From the IMG/VR virus record IMGVR_UViG_3300027969_000104, positions 1-62,523 of that record: DNA of 62,523 nucleotides; one strand, given 5' to 3'. Every line of letters begins with the position of its first letter. The first letter of the stretch is position 1. The notes below the pieces were generated by a model, which was given only the letters and a program-made list of their open reading frames with translations, did no database searches and was not told the DNA's origin. The position numbers and the translations under genes are program-made. Shown here in pieces: positions 24,663 through 33,207 of this stretch. Source of the stretch: a virus. Taxonomy: Duplodnaviria; Caudoviricetes.

Positions 24663-27600
24663 TTAACCTTGTTGCATTAACATTCGTTTAGTGATATCGT
24701 TTTGTCTAGACATAACACCTAATAATGAATCTAACTTTTCTAACTCTTGTGTTAATAGTGCGATCTGTTCCTCAGATCCACCACCACCACCGCCACTACT
24801 GCTGCTATTAGTTTGAACCGGGATTGTTCTTCCATCAGGCAGAGGAACTACTGCATCTGTACTAGATAATGCAGATTCGTATCCGCTAGATGGCGCACTA
24901 ATGTCAGGATTAGATGCTATACCACCCTTTTCTAAAGATTGTGTTGGTTTACTTGTTTTTCCTGATCTACGATTATTAATTTCTTGTGCTAAAAATGGAG
25001 AATCTTTAGGTAAACTAGCAGAAGTATAATCACTTCCCCATCCAACTAAACTTGAATGAGACGTATCTAAGTGAATATGTGCTCCACCTGGAGCTGAAAA
25101 TTCTGCACCTATTCCATTAAATCCTAAATCCATTGCTGTTGTGAAAACTTTATTTCTTTCTTCTTCACTTAATTGGTTAGCGCCAAATCCTAAATCAATC
25201 GCATCACCTGTTCCATGATTTGCTGCTCCAGCTCTAAATCCACTAGTAACTGTTAACTTTTTACCTATAGCTGATTCTATAGAAGCTTTCTTAGCTAATA
25301 CTGAATCTTTAACACCTGCTTCTTTTCCTACTCCAGAAGAAGCCGGCATACCTGCGCCACCAGAAGCTTCAGACGTAGATGAAGCAGAAGTTGGGCCAGC
25401 TGGATGAGTTGGTGCTTGTTCCGCTGATTTTGATGGCGTTTCCTTAGGAGGTGCTCCTCCAGCTGGAGCCGCTTCCGCGGGAGTTTCAGTTTTACCACCA
25501 GCAGCTTCACTAGTACCAGAACCAAAACTAAAAATATTTTTAACTTTATCAAACGTTGATAACAATAAATTTTTAGTACTATCAAGTATTGAACTAGAAG
25601 GATCATCTTTATTTTCTTTTGATTTACTCTGCAATGATTCAATCAATTCAGATAGTTGATTAGTTGTAGTAGATAAAGAAGAAAAACTTCTTACAACGGT
25701 TGGCATTGAACCAGATAAGCTGTTAGATAACAATTCCGAATTGTCTTTTTGTTCAGATAAAATACTAGAATATGATTGTGCCATATTAGATGTTTCATTG
25801 CTTGCAATTTTTGTCTGCGAAGTTGCTTGCGACATGCCAAGTTGAAAACTAGTAAGACTATTAGTTAATTTTCTCATCTGCTCAGCATTAAATTGCTCAG
25901 ATGATGGAGGAGAAATGATAGGAAAATTTTGATTAGCTGTTTGAATAGCAGGAGTACTTGTTAACAATTTTGTTGCTGATGTACTAGGCGCAGCAACTTT
26001 TCCACCGTCTGCATATTGTATACTTGAACTACCTGGTTTATTTAATCCCAATGCCTTAGTAGTTTCAGCATCAATAACATATTCACCCTTATGAACTATA
26101 CCAGCCGGTTCATATTTACCACCATGTCCCGTGTATCCGCCATCAGCAAAACCCAATTGAATTATTTGTTTGATCGCTTGTTTAGCTTCATCTTGTGCTT
26201 TGTCTGGATTTCCAGGGTACTTCTTATGCATAGCTTGAGATGTTTCTAACCACTTAGGATGTCCATATATCTGAGAAGGTCTAATTTCACCTGCCGCAAA
26301 TTCCTGCGGTTTCATTTGACCAGATTGTGTAATTGCCTGTGTGTCCTTGGCTATTTTTTCACTTATTTGAGCGCCATCGCCTGTATATCCGCCACCAGAA
26401 AATCCAGGAATATTTTTATTAAGACCCAATGATTTAGTAGTTTCTGCATCAATTACATATTCACCTGTGTGTACAATTCCAGCAGGTTCATATTTACCGC
26501 CATCTCCTGTATATCCACCTTTTGAAAATTCAGGAACTGTTTTGTTTAATCCTAATGCTTTAGTAGTTTCTGCATCAATAACATATTCGCCCTTATGAAC
26601 TATGCCAGCTGGTTCATATTTACCTCCAGAACCTGTATATCCTCCGTCTGAAAATAACCTACCAGTTAAAAATTTCACAGGAAGCATTGCAGCTGAGCCA
26701 ACTTTACCTAATAGAGTTGATCCGCCGCCTTGTTGTCCTTCTTTGCCTGCTAGTTGTCCTAATACTCCTGCTGCTTGTTGCACTACTCCTGAAAATGTTA
26801 CTAGCGATGAGGTAACAACGCCCATTCCAAGATCAAGTATTTTTTCTGTTGACTGAGCATAATCACGAATATTTTGATAGGTTTCAACAGTATTAGCAGT
26901 AACGCCTTGAAAAAATGTATTACCTTCCTTGCCATCAACTTGTTCCCTCTGTTGTGCTGTTGCTCCTTTCACACTCTTAGTGTGATCCATCATTGCAAGA
27001 TTTGTACCCCGTGCTATCTCTGACATAGGTCCAAAGTTTTTATCAAAAGCACCAACACGAGCCAAACCACCAAACTGTTTTATGGTTTCTGTGGTATCTT
27101 TACCAACTCTATTTTGAAATTCTCCTATATCTCTGCCGCCTTGTTGGATATAAGTAGCAGACCTGCCCAAAGATCGTTGAAATGTATGATAACCTTCGCT
27201 ATTAACAGCCCCTGCCAGGAACATAGTGGCATTTTTTTGCATAGCTGGTCCCATTGAGGACTTAGCCACTGCTAATACTTGTTCGTTAAATCTTAATTCT
27301 TCTTGAGCTTTTTTACCTTCTTCGCCGCCTCTTGCTGCTATTTGCTGTAATTCATAGGTCCTAGCAGCATATTGCTCAGTTGCCATTGCTTCCATGCGAA
27401 TATTATTCTGCTCATCCGCACTTAAGCCAGTTAATTTTGTTAATTTGTCCTGCTGAACCATAAATTCAGCAGCTGCTTTGACTGTCTCAGAGCTATCTTT
27501 CTCAATAGCTCGTCCTCCCATCTGCTGGAATTTTATATAATTTGCTATGCCAGAATTAATATCAGGAATAGTCATGCCCATACGCATAAATTGCGTACCT

Positions 27601-28187
27601 AATCCTGAATTTGTGATTTCTTTAGATATTTTTGAAAATTTAGTAAGACCTTCTTGGGCAGTTCCACTCATAACAGCTAATACAGTGGAATTTTGTTTCA
27701 TTAGGGAACCATAATCCCCTATTTCCTTTGCTGTATAGCCTGCCGCCTGTAGATTTTTAAAGGCATCATCCATGCCCTTAGCTAGTCCTGATCTACTTAA
27801 ATCCTGAAAAAGTTTGTACTGTTGATCTGCTAATACAGCTATTTTATTTTCTAAAAAAGCCAGTCCTTCTACAAATTTACCCAGTATATTACTGCCATCC
27901 TTAGCATTTTTGTTCCAATCTGAGAATGTTTTAGCTCCGGCAGCCACAACTTTATTGTAAGTAGCAGCTCCACCTTGACCATCTTGTAAATTTGTTGCAA
28001 GATCTAGAAAATTTGCGGTTAATGCCTTTTGACTAGCCCGTAATTGAGCAGAGTATCCTTTAATACCAACAGAAGCATCTTTTAACGAATCCCTAAGTGC
28101 CTGGGTTATAGGTGTTCCTTCGGCCAACGCCCTATTGTACTCGTCCACATAGTGTTGAATTTCTTCTGGTGTCATTTGATCTTGCAT
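24663..28187 (-). CDS. Tape-measure-like protein with C-terminal peptidase M15-like domain
   Basis: Paralogue of 20580..24659; GGYTG.GGKYEPAGIVHKGEYV repeats; VTSGFR...H..G.AIDL...HIHLD Zn-peptidase motif; TATAAATA at 28194-28201. Confidence 0.75.
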   Translation of the reverse strand: MQDQMTPEEIQHYVDEYNRALAEGTPITQALRDSLKDASVGIKGYSAQLRASQKALTANFLDLATNLQDGQGGAATYNKVVAAGAKTFSDWNKNAKDGSNILGKFVEGLAFLENKIAVLADQQYKLFQDLSRSGLAKGMDDAFKNLQAAGYTAKEIGDYGSLMKQNSTVLAVMSGTAQEGLTKFSKISKEITNSGLGTQFMRMGMTIPDINSGIANYIKFQQMGGRAIEKDSSETVKAAAEFMVQQDKLTKLTGLSADEQNNIRMEAMATEQYAARTYELQQIAARGGEEGKKAQEELRFNEQVLAVAKSSMGPAMQKNATMFLAGAVNSEGYHTFQRSLGRSATYIQQGGRDIGEFQNRVGKDTTETIKQFGGLARVGAFDKNFGPMSEIARGTNLAMMDHTKSVKGATAQQREQVDGKEGNTFFQGVTANTVETYQNIRDYAQSTEKILDLGMGVVTSSLVTFSGVVQQAAGVLGQLAGKEGQQGGGSTLLGKVGSAAMLPVKFLTGRLFSDGGYTGSGGKYEPAGIVHKGEYVIDAETTKALGLNKTVPEFSKGGYTGDGGKYEPAGIVHTGEYVIDAETTKSLGLNKNIPGFSGGGYTGDGAQISEKIAKDTQAITQSGQMKPQEFAAGEIRPSQIYGHPKWLETSQAMHKKYPGNPDKAQDEAKQAIKQIIQLGFADGGYTGHGGKYEPAGIVHKGEYVIDAETTKALGLNKPGSSSIQYADGGKVAAPSTSATKLLTSTPAIQTANQNFPIISPPSSEQFNAEQMRKLTNSLTSFQLGMSQATSQTKIASNETSNMAQSYSSILSEQKDNSELLSNSLSGSMPTVVRSFSSLSTTTNQLSELIESLQSKSKENKDDPSSSILDSTKNLLLSTFDKVKNIFSFGSGTSEAAGGKTETPAEAAPAGGAPPKETPSKSAEQAPTHPAGPTSASSTSEASGGAGMPASSGVGKEAGVKDSVLAKKASIESAIGKKLTVTSGFRAGAANHGTGDAIDLGFGANQLSEEERNKVFTTAMDLGFNGIGAEFSAPGGAHIHLDTSHSSLVGWGSDYTSASLPKDSPFLAQEINNRRSGKTSKPTQSLEKGGIASNPDISAPSSGYESALSSTDAVVPLPDGRTIPVQTNSSSSGGGGGGSEEQIALLTQELEKLDSLLGVMSRQNDITKRMLMQQG
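26037..26654 (-). repeat. Three full copies and one partial copy of a 38-aa FxxGGYTG..GKYEPAGIVHKGEYVIDAETTKALGLNK unit
   Basis: Copies at 26541-26654, 26415-26528 and 26037-26150; partial copy starting at 26402. Confidence 0.9.
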
Positions 28188-28213: not shown

Positions 28214-29044
28214 ATGAATCCTCTAAGCCAATACTTTAGACAACCATCAATTTACATTAAATTGCCTAGCCAGGGAAATTATTATCCAGAGGGAGCAATT
28301 GAAATGCCACAAAATGGCGAAGTTCCTGTGCTGCCCATGACGGCTATAGATGAAATTACATACCGCACACCCGATGCCTTATTCAGTGGACAGGCTGTTA
28401 TCAATGTAATCCAAAGTTGTGTGCCAGCAATCAAAGATGCCTGGGCAATTCCTTCAATTGACATTGATTCAATACTAGTAGCTATTCGTATTGCTAGTTA
28501 CGGTCATGAAATGACATTCTCAACAACATGTCCTAGTTGTCAGAATGAAGATGAATACGGTGTTGACCTACGCACAGTACTTGATAGAATGAAAAAGCCA
28601 GATTACGCAGTTCCTATCAAACAAGGAGACATTGAGATTTACTTTAGACCAATGACTTACAAGAATCTGTCTGATAATAATAAAATTCAATTTGATGAGC
28701 AGCGTATTTTTCAATCATTATCATCGGAAGGTGAGGTTGATAAAACTCAGCTAACAGCTATGTCTGATGCACTAAAGCGCATGACCGAAATGACGGTATC
28801 TGCATTAAGCCAAAGCATTTTAACTATTAAAACTCCATCAGCTATGGTTACAGAACAAGAATATATCTCAGAATTCATGAAAAACTGTGATAGTAAGTTG
28901 TTTAATCTTATTCAAAATTATGTGGTTGAACATAAAGCCGAAGCAGAGATGCAACCTGTTACTATTAAATGTAATGCATGTGAGAATCAATATTCACAAA
29001 GTATTACATTGGACATGACAACTTTTTTCGGGCGCGCCTCCTAG
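28214..29044 (+). CDS. Baseplate hub/tail assembly chaperone (T4 gp26-like)
   Basis: IKLPSQG, PMTAIDE, ILVAIRIASYG, two CxxC motifs; AAGGA SD; divergent from the tape-measure-like genes. Confidence 0.8.
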   Translation: MNPLSQYFRQPSIYIKLPSQGNYYPEGAIEMPQNGEVPVLPMTAIDEITYRTPDALFSGQAVINVIQSCVPAIKDAWAIPSIDIDSILVAIRIASYGHEMTFSTTCPSCQNEDEYGVDLRTVLDRMKKPDYAVPIKQGDIEIYFRPMTYKNLSDNNKIQFDEQRIFQSLSSEGEVDKTQLTAMSDALKRMTEMTVSALSQSILTIKTPSAMVTEQEYISEFMKNCDSKLFNLIQNYVVEHKAEAEMQPVTIKCNACENQYSQSITLDMTTFFGRAS

Positions 29045-29082
29045 TATTAGATGCTGAAAGCGTCTCCAAATACATTGATAAA

Positions 29083-29259
29083 ATGGATAAGGAGATAAAT
29101 GATATTAGACTTGAGGCGTTACGCATGTCCTGGTACATGAGAGGTGGATTGCCATATGATCAAGCCTTGCAACTAAGTGTGTCAGAGAGAAAACTAATTA
29201 GTGGTATTATCAAAGATAACATGGAGACCACAAAAAAAAGTGGCTTGCCATTTTTTTAA
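29083..29259 (+). CDS. gp51-like hub assembly protein (58 aa; possibly made as a -1 frameshift extension of the previous gene)
   Basis: Not in the track: MDKEINDIRLEALRMSWYMRGGLPYDQALQLSVSERKLISGIIKDNMETTKKSGLPFF*; frame open from 28984; no SD before the ATG. Confidence 0.75.
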   Translation: MDKEINDIRLEALRMSWYMRGGLPYDQALQLSVSERKLISGIIKDNMETTKKSGLPFF

Positions 29260-29332
29260 GCTCCTTTTTCTGTTTTCTCCAGGCATGACTCCCATAATGT
29301 CAAGGATATCTTAAATTTCTTTTACCTTTAAG

Positions 29333-29965
29333 AGATTAGCTTCGCTAATCTAAGACTCGCTTACGCTCGTCTTATTTCTTTCCATTATTATTAGTAGTTG
29401 CAGTTGATACTATTCGTCTAGAACTAGGACATAATTCACCGTAAGCACGGTGAAAAAAATGTTCTCTTCGTCTGAGACTGAGGACACCTATTATAAAGAG
29501 ATTGTGCTTTCACACGCGGAGGCGGTTGACCGGTACCCCCTACTCTAGCTTCACAAATCAACGGAACCCTAGTGACCCTATAATAAATCAAAGTCCTATA
29601 AGCATGGGTCGTATCTTTTTCACGTTGCCCAAACCATTTGTTGCCTTAAGTTGGCTTTTGCCTTTGACACCCGAGTAAGCTTGCGCCTCTTCTATCCGAA
29701 TTGGGTTTTTCACCAATCCTCAACGGGGGTCGAGCCGCCTCGACCAAACGCTGTCAGTGTGATGCCTCCCAGGGTTTCACTGGTTCCGACAATAGTTTCG
29801 GGCTTCCCCTAACTTTGCTTGTTGATGCCTGTCTAATGATTTGTGTGATGCTTTATATAATGATTTAATAGTTTCGCAGTAAACATAACTACTTTCCGAG
29901 TTGGTGCGGTAGTAATATTTCACTGAAAAATTTTTGATGCCTTACTGAGATGCCTATCTAATGAT
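29333..29965 (-). ncRNA. Candidate large structured non-coding RNA (or RNA-primed origin), family not recognised
   Basis: About 650 nt with no ORF of 60 aa or more, visibly more GC-rich than the flanks, about 10 hairpins; GNRA loops and G-U pairs are consistent with the minus strand. Confidence 0.6.
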
Positions 29966-30394
29966 TTAAATTTTGTTTTTAATATGACTACCATGTATAC
30001 GACAAACTATTTGTCCGTTATAGTAATCATCACTTTCTAATACACGATGCTTAAACTGTTCCCTAACCTCAACATAACTGCATTCCGATTTGGTTTTGCA
30101 ATAATATAATATTTCCCTAGTGAAGTTTTCGATGCCTAACTTTTCGATGTCTTTATTTAATTCTATGCTGCTGCCGGTGTACTGTTGCCAGTCTGAATCC
30201 ACTTTGCTTCTGATTTTCTTTCGTTTTTTGGTGCCGTTCTTAAGTTTTACTACTTTGTATGTTGTCTTACTAAATTTTGCTAATTTTTTTCCAATATATT
30301 TTCTGCCTGATATGTTATTGGTAATACAATAAACAAATCCGACACAATCTTCTGGTAGTATCTCAACATGGGTGTTTTCAAAAAGCCATAACAT
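29966..30394 (-). CDS. Stand-alone GIY-YIG endonuclease (EndoII/Seg-like catalytic domain)
   Basis: GFVYCITN...KYIGKK, Y.GSS, FTREIL, conserved E, YYNG. Confidence 0.85.
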   Translation of the reverse strand: MLWLFENTHVEILPEDCVGFVYCITNNISGRKYIGKKLAKFSKTTYKVVKLKNGTKKRKKIRSKVDSDWQQYTGSSIELNKDIEKLGIENFTREILYYCKTKSECSYVEVREQFKHRVLESDDYYNGQIVCRIHGSHIKNKI

Positions 30395-30430
30395 CTACTA
30401 GTTATAGTCTTTATAATAACACTCATATTT

Positions 30431-32194
30431 TTATGATACATCCACATCTGTATTATAACTGGTAAAGCCTCCATCCTTTATTACTTTGAGAATATTCTCT
30501 ACTCTTCCTGTCAATTCATCTCTATGACTTACTAACCATATTGATTTATTTCTCTCTCGTGCCATTTGTTTTAATAAACCCAATGCAGACTCAACGCCCT
30601 GTGAATCAAGTCCGTTATCTATCATTTCGTCTACGAACAGAAGATTAATCGGAGTATATAATGATTCAAACACATCCCTGAATGCCCATGCCATTGATAA
30701 GATCAAGCGATTTCTTTCGCCCCTTGATAGATTATCAAAGTCAAGCTCACGACCTAGCTCTTCGATATTGACTGACAGATCATTTTGAAATATAACAGTA
30801 TGTGGTAGTCCAATACGATCTAAGTAATTAGTTAATCTTGTATTAAGATATGATAAGTTTTGTTCAATAATCTTTTTTCTTATGAAACTATCCTTGCTTG
30901 TAAGCAATTTTAATAAGAATTCTTGATGTTCTTGTACTTTAGTCAAATCATTCAACGCATCATATGTAACTTCTGCCAGTGCTTGCTCAGTCATTTCAGT
31001 AATTTGATCAGCATACGGATCTATTTCTGTTCGTTTATTTTCTAATTGAACTTGTAGACCAGCTATAGTAGCACGATGTTGAATTGCATCTTCTTCTTTA
31101 TCGTAAAACATCTTAGGTGGTTTGCCTAATATGCCAAGTGATAGCTGTGCATCGTTTAAATCTATTAGTAATTCGTTGTATTCTTTATTTGCTGCTTGTG
31201 AGACTTCTAGTTCTTTCTGTTTTGTAGATAACACCTGTTCATACTTACTATCGTGGAACTCTTGGCCGCACGTGTGACACTCATGATTTGCAAGCGTTTT
31301 GATTTCAGAAAGTAGCCTACTGATTGATTTTTCTTCTCTAGCAATATCTAATTTAACTCTGCTGATTTGTGTAGTTAGTTCATTGATGTCCTTACGCTTT
31401 TGATCCCATGATGAGTGATCTTTGTGCGCTTGAATTTCTAAATCTATGTTAATTTCCTGTAATGAAGCTAATGCTGCTTCAAGTTTTGTTGTATCTTCGG
31501 TGTTTTTAGTAGTCCAAAGTGTCTGTCTACGTTTTAGTGAGACAATTTGTTCTTCTATTCGTTTGTTTGCGTCTTGTACAGCACGAATTCTAACTTCTTC
31601 AGCTTGAATACTGTCTTTCGTAGTGCGATTTAGCTCTTTGATACGATCAGCACGTTCACTCAGTAACGTAATACCAAGTAATTGTTCAATAATAGTGCGT
31701 TGATCGTTGGCTTTTAGTGATAAAAACGGTTCAGTGTATGTATTAAGCGCCATAATATGCTTAAACATGTCATGACTCATGCCTAACATATCTTCAATTT
31801 CACTCTGGGTTTCTCTACTATCACCCTGTGCGTTGTCTTTGGCTTCGGTTTCTTTGTCATTGACATAAAACTTAAGCAAATTAGGCTTACGACCACGTTC
31901 AATACGATATTGTTGATCACCTATAGCAAAATCCAAGGATACTATCATGTTTTTGCCATTAGTTTTGTTAACTAGGTTATCACGCTTGATATTGCTTAGA
32001 GCAACACCATATAAAGCATATGATAATGCATTGATGATGGTAGTTTTGCCTGTTCCATTGCGAGATCCGTCTCCGCCTAGGTCTAAATTCTCTCCTAGTA
32101 CTAAAGTTAGGTCTCTGCGATCAAAATTTATTGCTTGAGTAGCATTTCCGACACTCATGAAGTTTTTTACTGTCAAATTCTGTATATTAATCAT
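30431..32194 (-). CDS. gp46: Recombination ATPase (gp46/SbcC/Rad50)
   Basis: Walker A NGTGKT, CHTC zinc hook, LSRGE signature, LLFVDE Walker B, SHR. Confidence 0.95.
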   Translation of the reverse strand: MINIQNLTVKNFMSVGNATQAINFDRRDLTLVLGENLDLGGDGSRNGTGKTTIINALSYALYGVALSNIKRDNLVNKTNGKNMIVSLDFAIGDQQYRIERGRKPNLLKFYVNDKETEAKDNAQGDSRETQSEIEDMLGMSHDMFKHIMALNTYTEPFLSLKANDQRTIIEQLLGITLLSERADRIKELNRTTKDSIQAEEVRIRAVQDANKRIEEQIVSLKRRQTLWTTKNTEDTTKLEAALASLQEINIDLEIQAHKDHSSWDQKRKDINELTTQISRVKLDIAREEKSISRLLSEIKTLANHECHTCGQEFHDSKYEQVLSTKQKELEVSQAANKEYNELLIDLNDAQLSLGILGKPPKMFYDKEEDAIQHRATIAGLQVQLENKRTEIDPYADQITEMTEQALAEVTYDALNDLTKVQEHQEFLLKLLTSKDSFIRKKIIEQNLSYLNTRLTNYLDRIGLPHTVIFQNDLSVNIEELGRELDFDNLSRGERNRLILSMAWAFRDVFESLYTPINLLFVDEMIDNGLDSQGVESALGLLKQMARERNKSIWLVSHRDELTGRVENILKVIKDGGFTSYNTDVDVS

Positions 32195-33207
32195 AGACTC
32201 TGGTAAATTTTTAGTAATAACTTAGGATCATAGAATTCTGATTCAATATTTGTAATTTGATCAGTGACAATTTGATCTACTGACTCAAATTTTATCTCTC
32301 CCGGAGCTAAATCAGTATCAACTGAGTTAGTTTTAACTGGAATTAACGCCATTTCGCGCAATTTATAGTCTTTGATGAATGTTTCTTTAATGAAATTAGC
32401 TTCTTCATAACTAATACCAATGTCCAACTCAACACGAACATACATGTTGGGTTGAAAGATGCTTGCTCCGTTGTCAATTGCATCACTTAACTTAAGTACA
32501 CGATATAATGGTTGTCCCGGCCATGAAAAATACTTGTCTTCCATGCCCCATTCTTTGACCATCATGCCACGAGCACTATCTCCTGCATCAGCAAAGTTAT
32601 GAGGAAAGCAATTACCAATATAAGTGACATTTTCTTTCTTTTGACGCATATGAAAGTGGCCACTATACACGCTTTCAAAGCCGGTGAAGTGATCTACCTT
32701 AATTTCACCTGTGTCTGGCATTTCTACCATGGCATTCATCTTAAAATGAGGTAATTCAAAGTGGCCAAACATATATTGACCACTTAGTTTCTGAATTTTT
32801 TTATGATCATCACCTACTAGCCATGGAGCAATTGTAACATTGCCTTCTGTGAACCAATCGTTTACAATAATGATGTTTGGAATGTGTTTAGCCCATTCTG
32901 CGCCATGAATATCACGTTTATCACGATAATATAAGTCATGGTTGCCAGGAATGAAGTAAAATTTATCAAATGCCTTAGATAATTTTTCTAATGCACGTAC
33001 ACTAAACTGAAGTGTTTGTAAATTGATTGAAGCACGATGATTATGCCAATCACCAAGGAACATACCGGTTTCACAGCCTTCTTCCTTGGCTTTATCAATA
33101 AACCAGTCAATAAATGCTTCGCAATCACGGTTATGTACTAAACTATTGGATTTTAAACCCCAATGAATATCGGTACATACCGCTGCTTTCTTAAATAGAT
33201 TTGTCAT
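32191..33207 (-). CDS. gp47: Recombination nuclease (gp47/SbcD/Mre11)
   Basis: DIHWG, LGD, GNHD, GHFE, SGHFH phosphoesterase motifs; ATGA overlap with gp46. Confidence 0.95.
   Translation of the reverse strand: MTNLFKKAAVCTDIHWGLKSNSLVHNRDCEAFIDWFIDKAKEEGCETGMFLGDWHNHRASINLQTLQFSVRALEKLSKAFDKFYFIPGNHDLYYRDKRDIHGAEWAKHIPNIIIVNDWFTEGNVTIAPWLVGDDHKKIQKLSGQYMFGHFELPHFKMNAMVEMPDTGEIKVDHFTGFESVYSGHFHMRQKKENVTYIGNCFPHNFADAGDSARGMMVKEWGMEDKYFSWPGQPLYRVLKLSDAIDNGASIFQPNMYVRVELDIGISYEEANFIKETFIKDYKLREMALIPVKTNSVDTDLAPGEIKFESVDQIVTDQITNIESEFYDPKLLLKIYQSL

Follow-up and report, generated by a model that had tools for sequence, protein, structure and literature searches.

The stretch of DNA analysed here, hereafter the window, is a 62,523-nucleotide (nt) fragment of the IMG/VR virus record IMGVR_UViG_3300027969_000104, estimated to be 18% complete, and contains at positions 29328-29755 a conserved, structured RNA of ~430 nt (all coordinates are window positions, and the RNA is read on the minus strand). 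Comparison with relatives revealed 15 helices, including a pseudoknot, in which compensatory changes have been kept. An earlier note, made from the letters of the window, had seen an unclassified large structured phage RNA behind the gene of a stand-alone GIY-YIG nuclease and had suggested a functional pairing of the two; the RNA itself is confirmed, with no match to an Rfam family and no transfer RNA (tRNA) or transfer-messenger RNA (tmRNA) gene in the window, whereas the functional pairing is not supported. With about even odds, positions 29328-29755 are the gene of an uncatalogued non-coding RNA (ncRNA) that is restricted to a single lineage of uncultured jumbo phages from fresh water and acts on its own, and a dedicated nuclease-RNA system is unlikely. 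The large RNA behind the nuclease stands, with boundaries other than those first proposed: the conserved part is confined to 29328-29755 and positions 29768-29965 are a spacer.

The evidence for structure is comparative and not thermodynamic, because the folding energy of the single sequence lies within about one standard deviation of shuffled sequences (z = -1.18 for the minus strand and -0.10 for the plus strand, not significant). Helices were defined by mutual information on 128 distinct sequences, by a search for stacked covarying pairs and by per-pair tables, and a core alignment of 38 sequences with 44 pairs was compared with 500 shuffles and with controls in which the pairing partners were slid by 1-3 columns. 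In this core, which takes in helices H5 to H12, 95.1% of the cells pair (86.6% in shuffles), double changes occur in 20 of the 44 pairs (12.2±1.9 in shuffles) and the covariation score reaches 0.275 (0.132 in shuffles). None of the 500 shuffles attained the observed values on any of the five measures, and the slid-partner controls gave at most 10 double-change pairs and a score of at most 0.086. The covariation among relatives that the earlier note had proposed to test is present. RNAalifold found compensatory changes in 24 of 69 predicted pairs, and 14 of the 15 helices are backed by per-pair tables on the 128 sequences, the exception being helix H2, treated separately below. Within helices G·U cells outnumber A·C cells (1249 vs 157), which identifies the minus strand, the sense of the nuclease, as the folded one, in agreement with the earlier reading of G·U wobbles. 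With compensatory pairs beyond the controls and a strand-specific excess of G·U, the locus qualifies as a structured ncRNA. About 60 positions of the 179-position core are invariant, many of them unpaired. Together with the closed 5' domain, the pseudoknot that locks the three-way junction against a hairpin, the GNRA-capped H12 and the invariant internal loop of H14, they point to selection on the three-dimensional shape of the RNA, as in ribozymes, riboswitches and ribonucleoprotein cores. The locus is not protein-coding: indel lengths show no preference for multiples of three (516, 1239 and 714 by length modulo 3), most of the longest open frames are found on the other strand, and the same invariant bases fall in different frames across clades.

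The elements of the RNA, listed from its 5' to its 3' end, are as follows (counts of pair types refer to the aligned sequences).

29666-29755, minus strand: 5' domain, in which H1 closes H2 and H3, and H3 closes H4
29753-29755 with 29666-29668, minus strand: helix H1 (G-C 100, C-G 20, A-U 5)
29729-29745, minus strand: hairpin H2, a single hairpin of 6-7 base pairs (bp) in 86 of 88 distinct versions
29724-29727 with 29670-29673, minus strand: helix H3, 95-100% paired, with several pair types
29713-29719 with 29698-29704, minus strand: helix H4, 95-100% paired, with several pair types
29677-29688, minus strand: optional hairpin of the 5' domain, a lineage insert in 7 of 46 aligned sequences
29653-29655 with 29643-29645, minus strand: helix H5, with the invariant loop AACUUAA
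29628-29635 with 29601-29608, and 29621-29624 with 29610-29613, minus strand: H6/H7 hairpin
29574-29595, minus strand: hairpin H8, 95-100% paired
29580-29588 (loop of H8) with 29486-29494, minus strand: helix H9, an H-type pseudoknot that spans the three-way junction
29547-29573, minus strand: nearly invariant unpaired stretch ACUAGGGUUCCGUUGAU(A/U)UGUGAAGCU, made of invariant alignment columns
29497-29546, minus strand: three-way junction, in which H10 encloses H11 and H12
29543-29546 with 29497-29500, minus strand: helix H10, whose pair 29546-29497 is A-U in 64 and U-A in 56 sequences
29518-29540, minus strand: hairpin H11, closing pair G-C 92, A-U 36
29504-29515, minus strand: hairpin H12, mostly capped by a GNRA loop, with 3-5 pair types per position
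29405-29476, minus strand: 3' module of motif A, hairpin H13 and motif B
29461-29476, minus strand: motif A, a direct repeat of motif B
29447-29454 with 29435-29442, minus strand: hairpin H13, 97-100% paired, with G-C to C-G changes
29405-29421, minus strand: motif B, a direct repeat of motif A
29352-29375, minus strand: terminal hairpin H14, with an invariant internal loop of GA opposite GAA
29345-29351 with 29333-29339, minus strand: terminal hairpin H15, with up to 5 standard pair types

Covariation is most evident in H2, the stems of which are unrelated in sequence among versions that all form the same hairpin, apart from two that are cut by contig ends. H2 is misaligned in the 128-sequence alignment, and its support rests on refolding the 88 distinct versions. 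The highest mutual information of the alignment belongs to pair 29631-29605 in H6 (U-A 69, G-C 39, C-G 10 and A-U 8), and H9 is fully rebuilt in the most divergent clade, where AUUUAUUAU/AUAAUAAAU is replaced by CUGAUC/GAUCAG. Within the nearly invariant unpaired stretch, the bases GUUGA could pair with the loop UCAAC of H11, both being invariant. The GA/GAA internal loop of H14 resembles tandem sheared G·A pairs, and may be a protein-binding motif. In many relatives H15 is followed by a U-rich run, and in many the RNA model ends 0-10 nt from the stop codon of a converging open reading frame (ORF); H15 is the probable 3' end of the RNA or a weak terminator.

Six of the helices proposed in the earlier note were recovered. 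The helix GGUCGAG/CUCGACC (29729-29745) is H2, and GGAUUGG/CCAAUUC, GUGU-GAAA-GCAC and UUCACCGU/ACGGUGAA are all backed by the per-pair tables, while GGGGG-UAC-CGG-UCAA-CCG-CCUCC holds with a single varying pair (G-C 92, A-U 36) among otherwise invariant ones. The long-range helix drawn between 29576-29587 and 29487-29498 was found in the shifted form 29580-29588 with 29486-29494, that is, as a pseudoknot with the loop of another hairpin, and AGGC-GCAA-GCUU exists, but as the lineage-specific insert present in 7 of 46 aligned sequences. Two proposals gave way to other pairings: instead of the CAGCG/CGUUG flanks of H2, covariation favours 29753-29755 with 29666-29668 and 29724-29727 with 29670-29673, and instead of GGC-AAAA-GCC it favours GCC-AACUUAA-GGC.

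The 3' module contains the most informative feature of the RNA. Motifs A and B flank H13 and carry the same base at three variable positions in nearly all of the 128 sequences: written as the two bases of the twin motifs, variable position R1 is A/A in 65, G/G in 56 and A/G in 7 sequences, R2 is A/A in 67, G/G in 53, G/A in 7 and C/C in 1, and the third position is U/U in 105, A/A in 11, G/G in 5 and A/U in 7. Linkage was rejected as the cause because positions 4 nt apart assort freely, while the copies, 58 nt apart, agree. Antiparallel pairing between A and B and a small-ORF reading were considered by eye and likewise rejected. Both motifs appear to be placed in loops of short variable hairpins. 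Motif B reads AUCUAGAU, a self-complementary sequence, and is followed by an A-rich stretch; no other or complementary copy of the motifs was found in the window. Candidate explanations are a pair of equivalent sites read by a single trans-acting factor, gene conversion over short tracts, and contacts in an oligomer, the last of which is touched by the self-complementarity of motif B.

Relatives of the locus were collected in two ways, 80 loci through gp46 alone and further loci through an IMG/VR scan with two invariant blocks of the RNA. The ORF-free region was detected by blastn in 67 of the 80 gp46-seeded loci, and in 8 of the 13 loci without a match the contig stops within 100 nt of the nuclease gene. 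A search with nhmmer located the RNA in 187 of 202 collected sequences (153 distinct copies). The RNA core is ~75-90% identical at the nucleotide level where the gp46 protein is 57-79% identical, and its best-conserved stretch reaches 80-91% nucleotide identity among phages with ~76% identical gp46 proteins. In this phage lineage the RNA is better conserved than the recombination and baseplate proteins beside it, and such strong conservation suggests an indispensable function.

Beyond this lineage the RNA is all but absent from the collections searched. A blastn search in 'distant' mode with 29260-29965 gave no match among 50,697 phage records. The core covariance model R1 (179 positions) found one copy in the window, and no match in locus L002 or in six gp46 loci without a blastn match. 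Among 185,579 species genomes, the invariant core occurs in only two contigs, both of one Haliscomenobacter metagenome-assembled genome (MAG). The RNA core is present in full on each of these contigs, L199 and L200 (NZ_JBBAKG010000003.1 and NZ_JBBAKG010000001.1; 148 kb and 183 kb). Both are probably jumbo-phage DNA that was binned with the bacterium, and a Bacteroidota host is at most a weak hint that is not used here as evidence.

The genes that surround the RNA in the window, together with copies of a short repeated heptamer, are the following.

32191-33207, minus strand: gp47-like phosphoesterase (Pfam Metallophos)
30431-32194, minus strand: gp46-like SMC/Rad50 ATPase (Pfam AAA_23/SMC_N)
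29966-30394, minus strand: stand-alone SegE-type GIY-YIG nuclease of 142 amino acids (aa) (Pfam PF19835, PHROG 447), directly behind gp46 and gp47
29768-29965, minus strand: lineage-specific spacer of 198 nt from the nuclease stop codon to the RNA
29824-29830, 29936-29942 and 29949-29955, minus strand: copies of AGGCATC, with a fourth at 29761-29767, just before the RNA
29328-29755, minus strand: conserved structured RNA of ~430 nt (nhmmer match 29329-29771, E 1.4e-110)
29083-29259, plus strand: conserved converging ORF of 58 aa, the far boundary of the RNA slot, with synteny kept across loci
28214-29044, plus strand: baseplate-hub gene (T4_baseplate PF12322, PHROG 150), upstream of the 58-aa ORF

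The earlier description of an ORF-poor and GC-rich stretch behind the nuclease gene proved accurate: no listed ORF in 29260-29965 is longer than 58 aa, and the GC fraction is 0.475-0.505 at 29500-29799, compared with ~0.31-0.40 in the flanks. A simple scan of 28900-30600 found no terminator-like site, so that, as previously remarked, none lies between nuclease and RNA, and promoter-like sites near the window copy of the RNA are not above chance. The closest cultured relative of gp46 is that of the Pseudomonas jumbo phage PA5oct (51% identity). The spacer at 29768-29965 is peculiar to close relatives of the window phage, most relatives having 1-15 nt at this place. AGGCATC occurs ten times in the window, four of them in or beside the spacer, and AAGGCAAC, which resembles it, lies inside the RNA at about 29640-29647. 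AGGCATC and the longer 5' motif were considered and rejected both as a promoter and as a part of the conserved RNA, since they are not spread through the window and the motif is absent from many relatives. Elsewhere in the neighbourhood, the minus strand at 24663-28187 encodes a tape-measure-like protein of 1174 aa without a Pfam match, in which a repeat of ~35 residues (GGYTGxGGKYEPAGIVHxGEYVIDAETTKxLGLNK) occurs three times. The gp46 homologue aligns in two pieces in Yersinia phage fHe-Yen9-03/-04 and Escherichia phage Turkey5, which suggests that gp46 of those jumbo phages may carry an insertion (an intron, intein or endonuclease gene).

The nuclease matches PF19835 (SegE_GIY-YIG) over residues 3-129 with E 3.4e-33 and 115 bits against a cut-off of 25, and no other Pfam family; the earlier remark that the 142-aa nuclease has no obvious separate DNA-binding domain is consistent with this result. 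Its 128 distinct variants without an internal stop conserve GFVY, YIGKK and later R, E and N positions, which we take to include the catalytic residues of the family, and with the score above cut-off and the motifs conserved the protein belongs to the SegE-type GIY-YIG nucleases. The gene is present in 78 of the 80 gp46-seeded loci, is 66-99% identical among them, and is as conserved as gp46. A free-standing, mobile homing endonuclease of the Seg type was considered and rejected, since the gene is not sporadic and the protein consists of one domain; the GIY-YIG protein behaves as a core enzyme and not as a selfish homing gene. Homologues of the 142-aa protein were found in 775 phage records, with up to 47% identity, and in the two phages examined, Melnitz and phiN3, the homologue is followed after 28-148 nt by ordinary genes and no RNA.

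Synteny was counted over the 137 distinct RNA loci for which 520 nt or more of the sequence upstream is available. A GIY-YIG gene lies upstream on the same strand in 130 of them. It is less than 100 nt from the RNA in 100 loci and 100-400 nt from it in 5, while in the other 25 the distance is larger and other genes intervene. The co-occurrence that the earlier note had proposed to test was observed, but the RNA is not tied to one nuclease family. In six loci (L097, L111, L118, L130, L145 and L173) the place is taken by a protein of 167-170 aa of the family PDDEXK_15 (PF24608, E about 1e-25; PHROG 244, annotated as 'RusA-like Holliday junction resolvase'), the fold of which is unrelated to GIY-YIG. 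The PDDEXK_15 gene stops 6-12 nt before the RNA in five of these six loci, and the invariant core of the RNA is kept. One locus has no nuclease match in the 596 nt available upstream, and the two nucleases never share a locus; counting either kind, the RNA starts within 100 nt of a nuclease gene in 105 of the 137. The complete 346.9-kb relative G001 contains one SegE-type gene. The PDDEXK_15 protein is 53% identical to gp342 of PA5oct, a phage without a match to the RNA core.

In 26 loci accessory genes (SGNH-like and others) separate the nuclease from the RNA. Insertions of accessory genes are frequent on either side of the RNA, which makes both flanks hot spots (loci L033, L045, L051, L056, L071, L087, L185 and L190), with SGNH-like and radical-SAM-like genes among others. 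In eight loci that were inspected, the nearest upstream gene ends no more than about 20 nt before the RNA, also in the six where this gene is an inserted one, and in most relatives only 1-15 nt separate the RNA from the preceding stop codon, whichever gene that codon belongs to. The slot looks like a case of non-orthologous displacement, in which GIY-YIG would have displaced PD-(D/E)XK or the reverse, and the upstream nuclease would most simply be a structure-specific enzyme for recombination or junction cutting that belongs to the gp46/gp47 module. A partnership with the RNA is weakened because the nuclease is swapped, genes are inserted between the two, and both nuclease families live without the RNA; the RNA is not co-inherited with any one of them.

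The RNA is new to the catalogues searched. Rfam 15 gave no match at gathering thresholds in the whole window and no credible match at E up to 10 for three diverse members, as the earlier note had anticipated for a novel RNA; the low-scoring matches are scattered eukaryotic small nucleolar and long non-coding RNAs, with no family common to the three members and, in the window, none on the conserved RNA. ARAGORN detected no tRNA or tmRNA gene in the 62.5-kb window. No description of this RNA was found in the literature searched: the four ncRNAs reported for PA5oct lie at other genome coordinates, as listed in Table 1 of PMC7318152, and the available text of the paper on 'moraphages' (PMC12619734) makes no mention of it. 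Closer in data source and comparative logic is the survey of candidate structured RNAs in IMG/VR by Fremin and Bhatt (2023; PMC10690425), the candidates of which, as far as its available text shows, measure 29-151 bases, so that it would include at most a fragment of this RNA.

By its several hundred nucleotides, many helices, pseudoknot and invariant unpaired stretches, the RNA belongs to a known kind, that of large ornate RNAs of unknown function. GOLLD, ROOL, OLE and raiA share these features and likewise came to light through covariation, and phages often carry GOLLD and ROOL; this RNA differs from all four in giving no Rfam 15 match to any of them. GOLLD and ROOL often adjoin tRNA genes, whereas the present RNA has a fixed syntenic slot at the end of the recombination operon, in a window without tRNA genes. 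What is unusual for its kind is this fixed operon-end position, together with the twin co-varying loops. The RNAs GOLLD, ROOL and OLE form homo-oligomers according to the available part of PMC12286853, and by analogy self-association through the self-complementary motif B is conceivable here too.

Other comparable systems combine a structured RNA with a nuclease or with a phage virion. HEARO or omega RNA (of IscB, IsrB and TnpB) is likewise a large structured RNA beside a nuclease gene; in the present case, however, the nucleases are GIY-YIG or PD-(D/E)XK proteins of 142-170 aa and not of the RuvC type, there is no HEARO match, the RNA is downstream of the gene, there are no transposon ends, and the nuclease can be swapped or moved while the RNA remains unchanged. 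A group I intron with an I-TevI-type endonuclease also places GIY-YIG beside a structured RNA in a T4-like recombination setting, and TIGR01453 (group I intron endonuclease) gives a weak match (23.4 bits against a cut-off of 56). Unlike such an intron, this RNA interrupts no gene but lies between a stop codon and a converging ORF; no insertion in a host gene with joinable exons was found, including in relatives with other upstream genes. No group I core was matched by Rfam models at E up to 10 in the three members. The helix order, a closed 5' domain, three hairpins and a hairpin-loop pseudoknot across a three-way junction, presumably differs in its pseudoknot topology from P3/P7 of group I. 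The pRNA of phi29 is an essential, structured RNA that forms an oligomer through loop-loop pairing, and the present RNA is similar to it as a conserved phage RNA with loop motifs beside virion genes, although neither sequence nor family matches and the RNA is about 2.5 times longer.

In the reading that we favour, the RNA would be transcribed as the last element of the gp47-gp46-nuclease operon. This order follows from the layout, because in most relatives the gap from the upstream stop codon to H1 is too short to hold a promoter, and a promoter inside the upstream gene is unlikely to be conserved since that gene varies. The transcript would end at H15 and probably remain in the cell in stable form, whether after processing or as a 3' untranslated region. 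At about even odds, it then acts in trans as a folded RNA that binds a partner (a protein, another RNA or itself), and does not guide the nuclease or serve it as a cofactor; if two equivalent binding sites exist, the loop motifs A and B that flank H13 would be the best candidates. In a lake metatranscriptome one contig of 162 nt is 100% identical to 29737-29898, and a second run, whose RNA origin is only a guess, is covered most deeply over 29510-29580.

Several observations weigh against this account. Both of these runs consist of contigs with small shares, carry neither strand, ends nor expression level, and amount to a weak hint of transcription. A nuclease is upstream in 136 of the 137 loci, and an explanation by synteny alone must assume a fixed gene order. 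No complementary partner column for the motifs was found inside the RNA, no other or complementary copy of them in the complete 346.9-kb relative, and no residue that tracks their states in GIY-YIG, the 58-aa ORF, the baseplate hub or gp46; the best GIY-YIG column shares 0.28 of 0.98 bits with the state of R1, a value like those of gp46 and the baseplate hub. PF24608 gave no match in G001, in a family search run without a positive control. Finally, core covariance model R1 gave no match in the PA5oct genome, in a search confined to the 179-position core, for which the first-look filter yielded no candidates.

Among the alternatives, the one we would consider next, although it is unlikely, is a cis-acting 3' element whose fold only shields the operon mRNA from 3' exonucleases and stops transcription. 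The RNA is always at the 3' end of a co-directional block and faces the converging ORF, its terminal hairpins abut the stop codon of that ORF, and many relatives have the U-rich run after H15; yet terminators and stabilisers can do without 430 nt, a pseudoknot and long unpaired stretches that do not vary, several relatives have further genes on the same strand behind the RNA, so that it is not always terminal, and the terminator scan of the window region was negative. Size, pseudoknot, multi-way junctions and invariant unpaired core resemble those of large catalytic RNAs, and if the RNA is released from the operon transcript its 5' end must be made somehow, for instance by self-excision from the polycistronic transcript. 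A ribozyme that catalyses such a reaction is nonetheless quite improbable, given that the three members matched no Rfam ribozyme family at E up to 10 and that the helix order is presumably unlike those of group I, group II and RNase P. That the element is a replication origin, with a transcript that primes DNA synthesis and with A and B as iteron-like sites for a DNA-binding protein, we hold to be very improbable. Iterons are known to co-vary with their binding protein, and the direct repeats here co-vary as identical sequences in that manner, an A-rich stretch follows motif B and recombination genes adjoin the locus; against this, the repeat has just two copies, the neighbourhood contains no known initiator gene, and the strong G·U bias and compensatory changes show that selection acts on a single RNA strand throughout the 430 nt. 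That the locus is a gene in decay or a coding ORF on the antisense strand, with no functional RNA at all, is practically out of the question: stop-to-stop frames with a median of 69.5 aa do exist, mostly on the opposite strand, but indels do not come in triplets, the frame over the invariant bases differs between clades, and compensatory pairing is far above the controls.

The remaining alternative is the one closest to the earlier note, namely that the RNA serves the small nuclease encoded upstream of it, of either family, as cofactor, guide, regulator or substrate, with guide-like twin motifs. It draws on the same-strand nuclease upstream in 136 of 137 loci, in 105 of them within 100 nt, on a nuclease and an RNA that are very probably on one transcript, on the single-domain build of both nucleases (142-170 aa, no separate nucleic-acid-binding domain), and on twin motifs that vary between phages yet stay identical to each other. 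Two unrelated folds would, however, have to use the same invariant RNA core, unrelated genes intervene in 26 loci, each nuclease family is found elsewhere without the RNA, no GIY-YIG column tracks the motif states, and the motifs have only few states and no complementary site in a complete genome. We consider a partnership of this kind distinctly unlikely. A bolder version, in which the RNA would be the constant half that recruits, aims or restrains a small, interchangeable and structure-specific nuclease (GIY-YIG or PD-(D/E)XK) from the same transcript, and the twin motifs would read a nucleic-acid target, is as improbable as the ribozyme; if true, it would be an RNA-directed nuclease system unrelated to CRISPR/OMEGA and a core function of a jumbo-phage lineage.

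Large RNAs with intricate conserved folds are rare, and to our knowledge nearly every class of large RNA whose function has been solved is a ribozyme, a riboswitch or a ribonucleoprotein core. The RNA at 29328-29755 forms a well-defined family that could enter Rfam, and it is a compact target for cryo-electron microscopy and chemical probing. Its distribution also corrects a weakly founded idea, that a GIY-YIG nuclease beside a large RNA implies an RNA-guided enzyme. For the jumbo phages that carry it, the puzzle lies in two loops that are forced to stay identical, and the solution of that puzzle should reveal the partner of the RNA.

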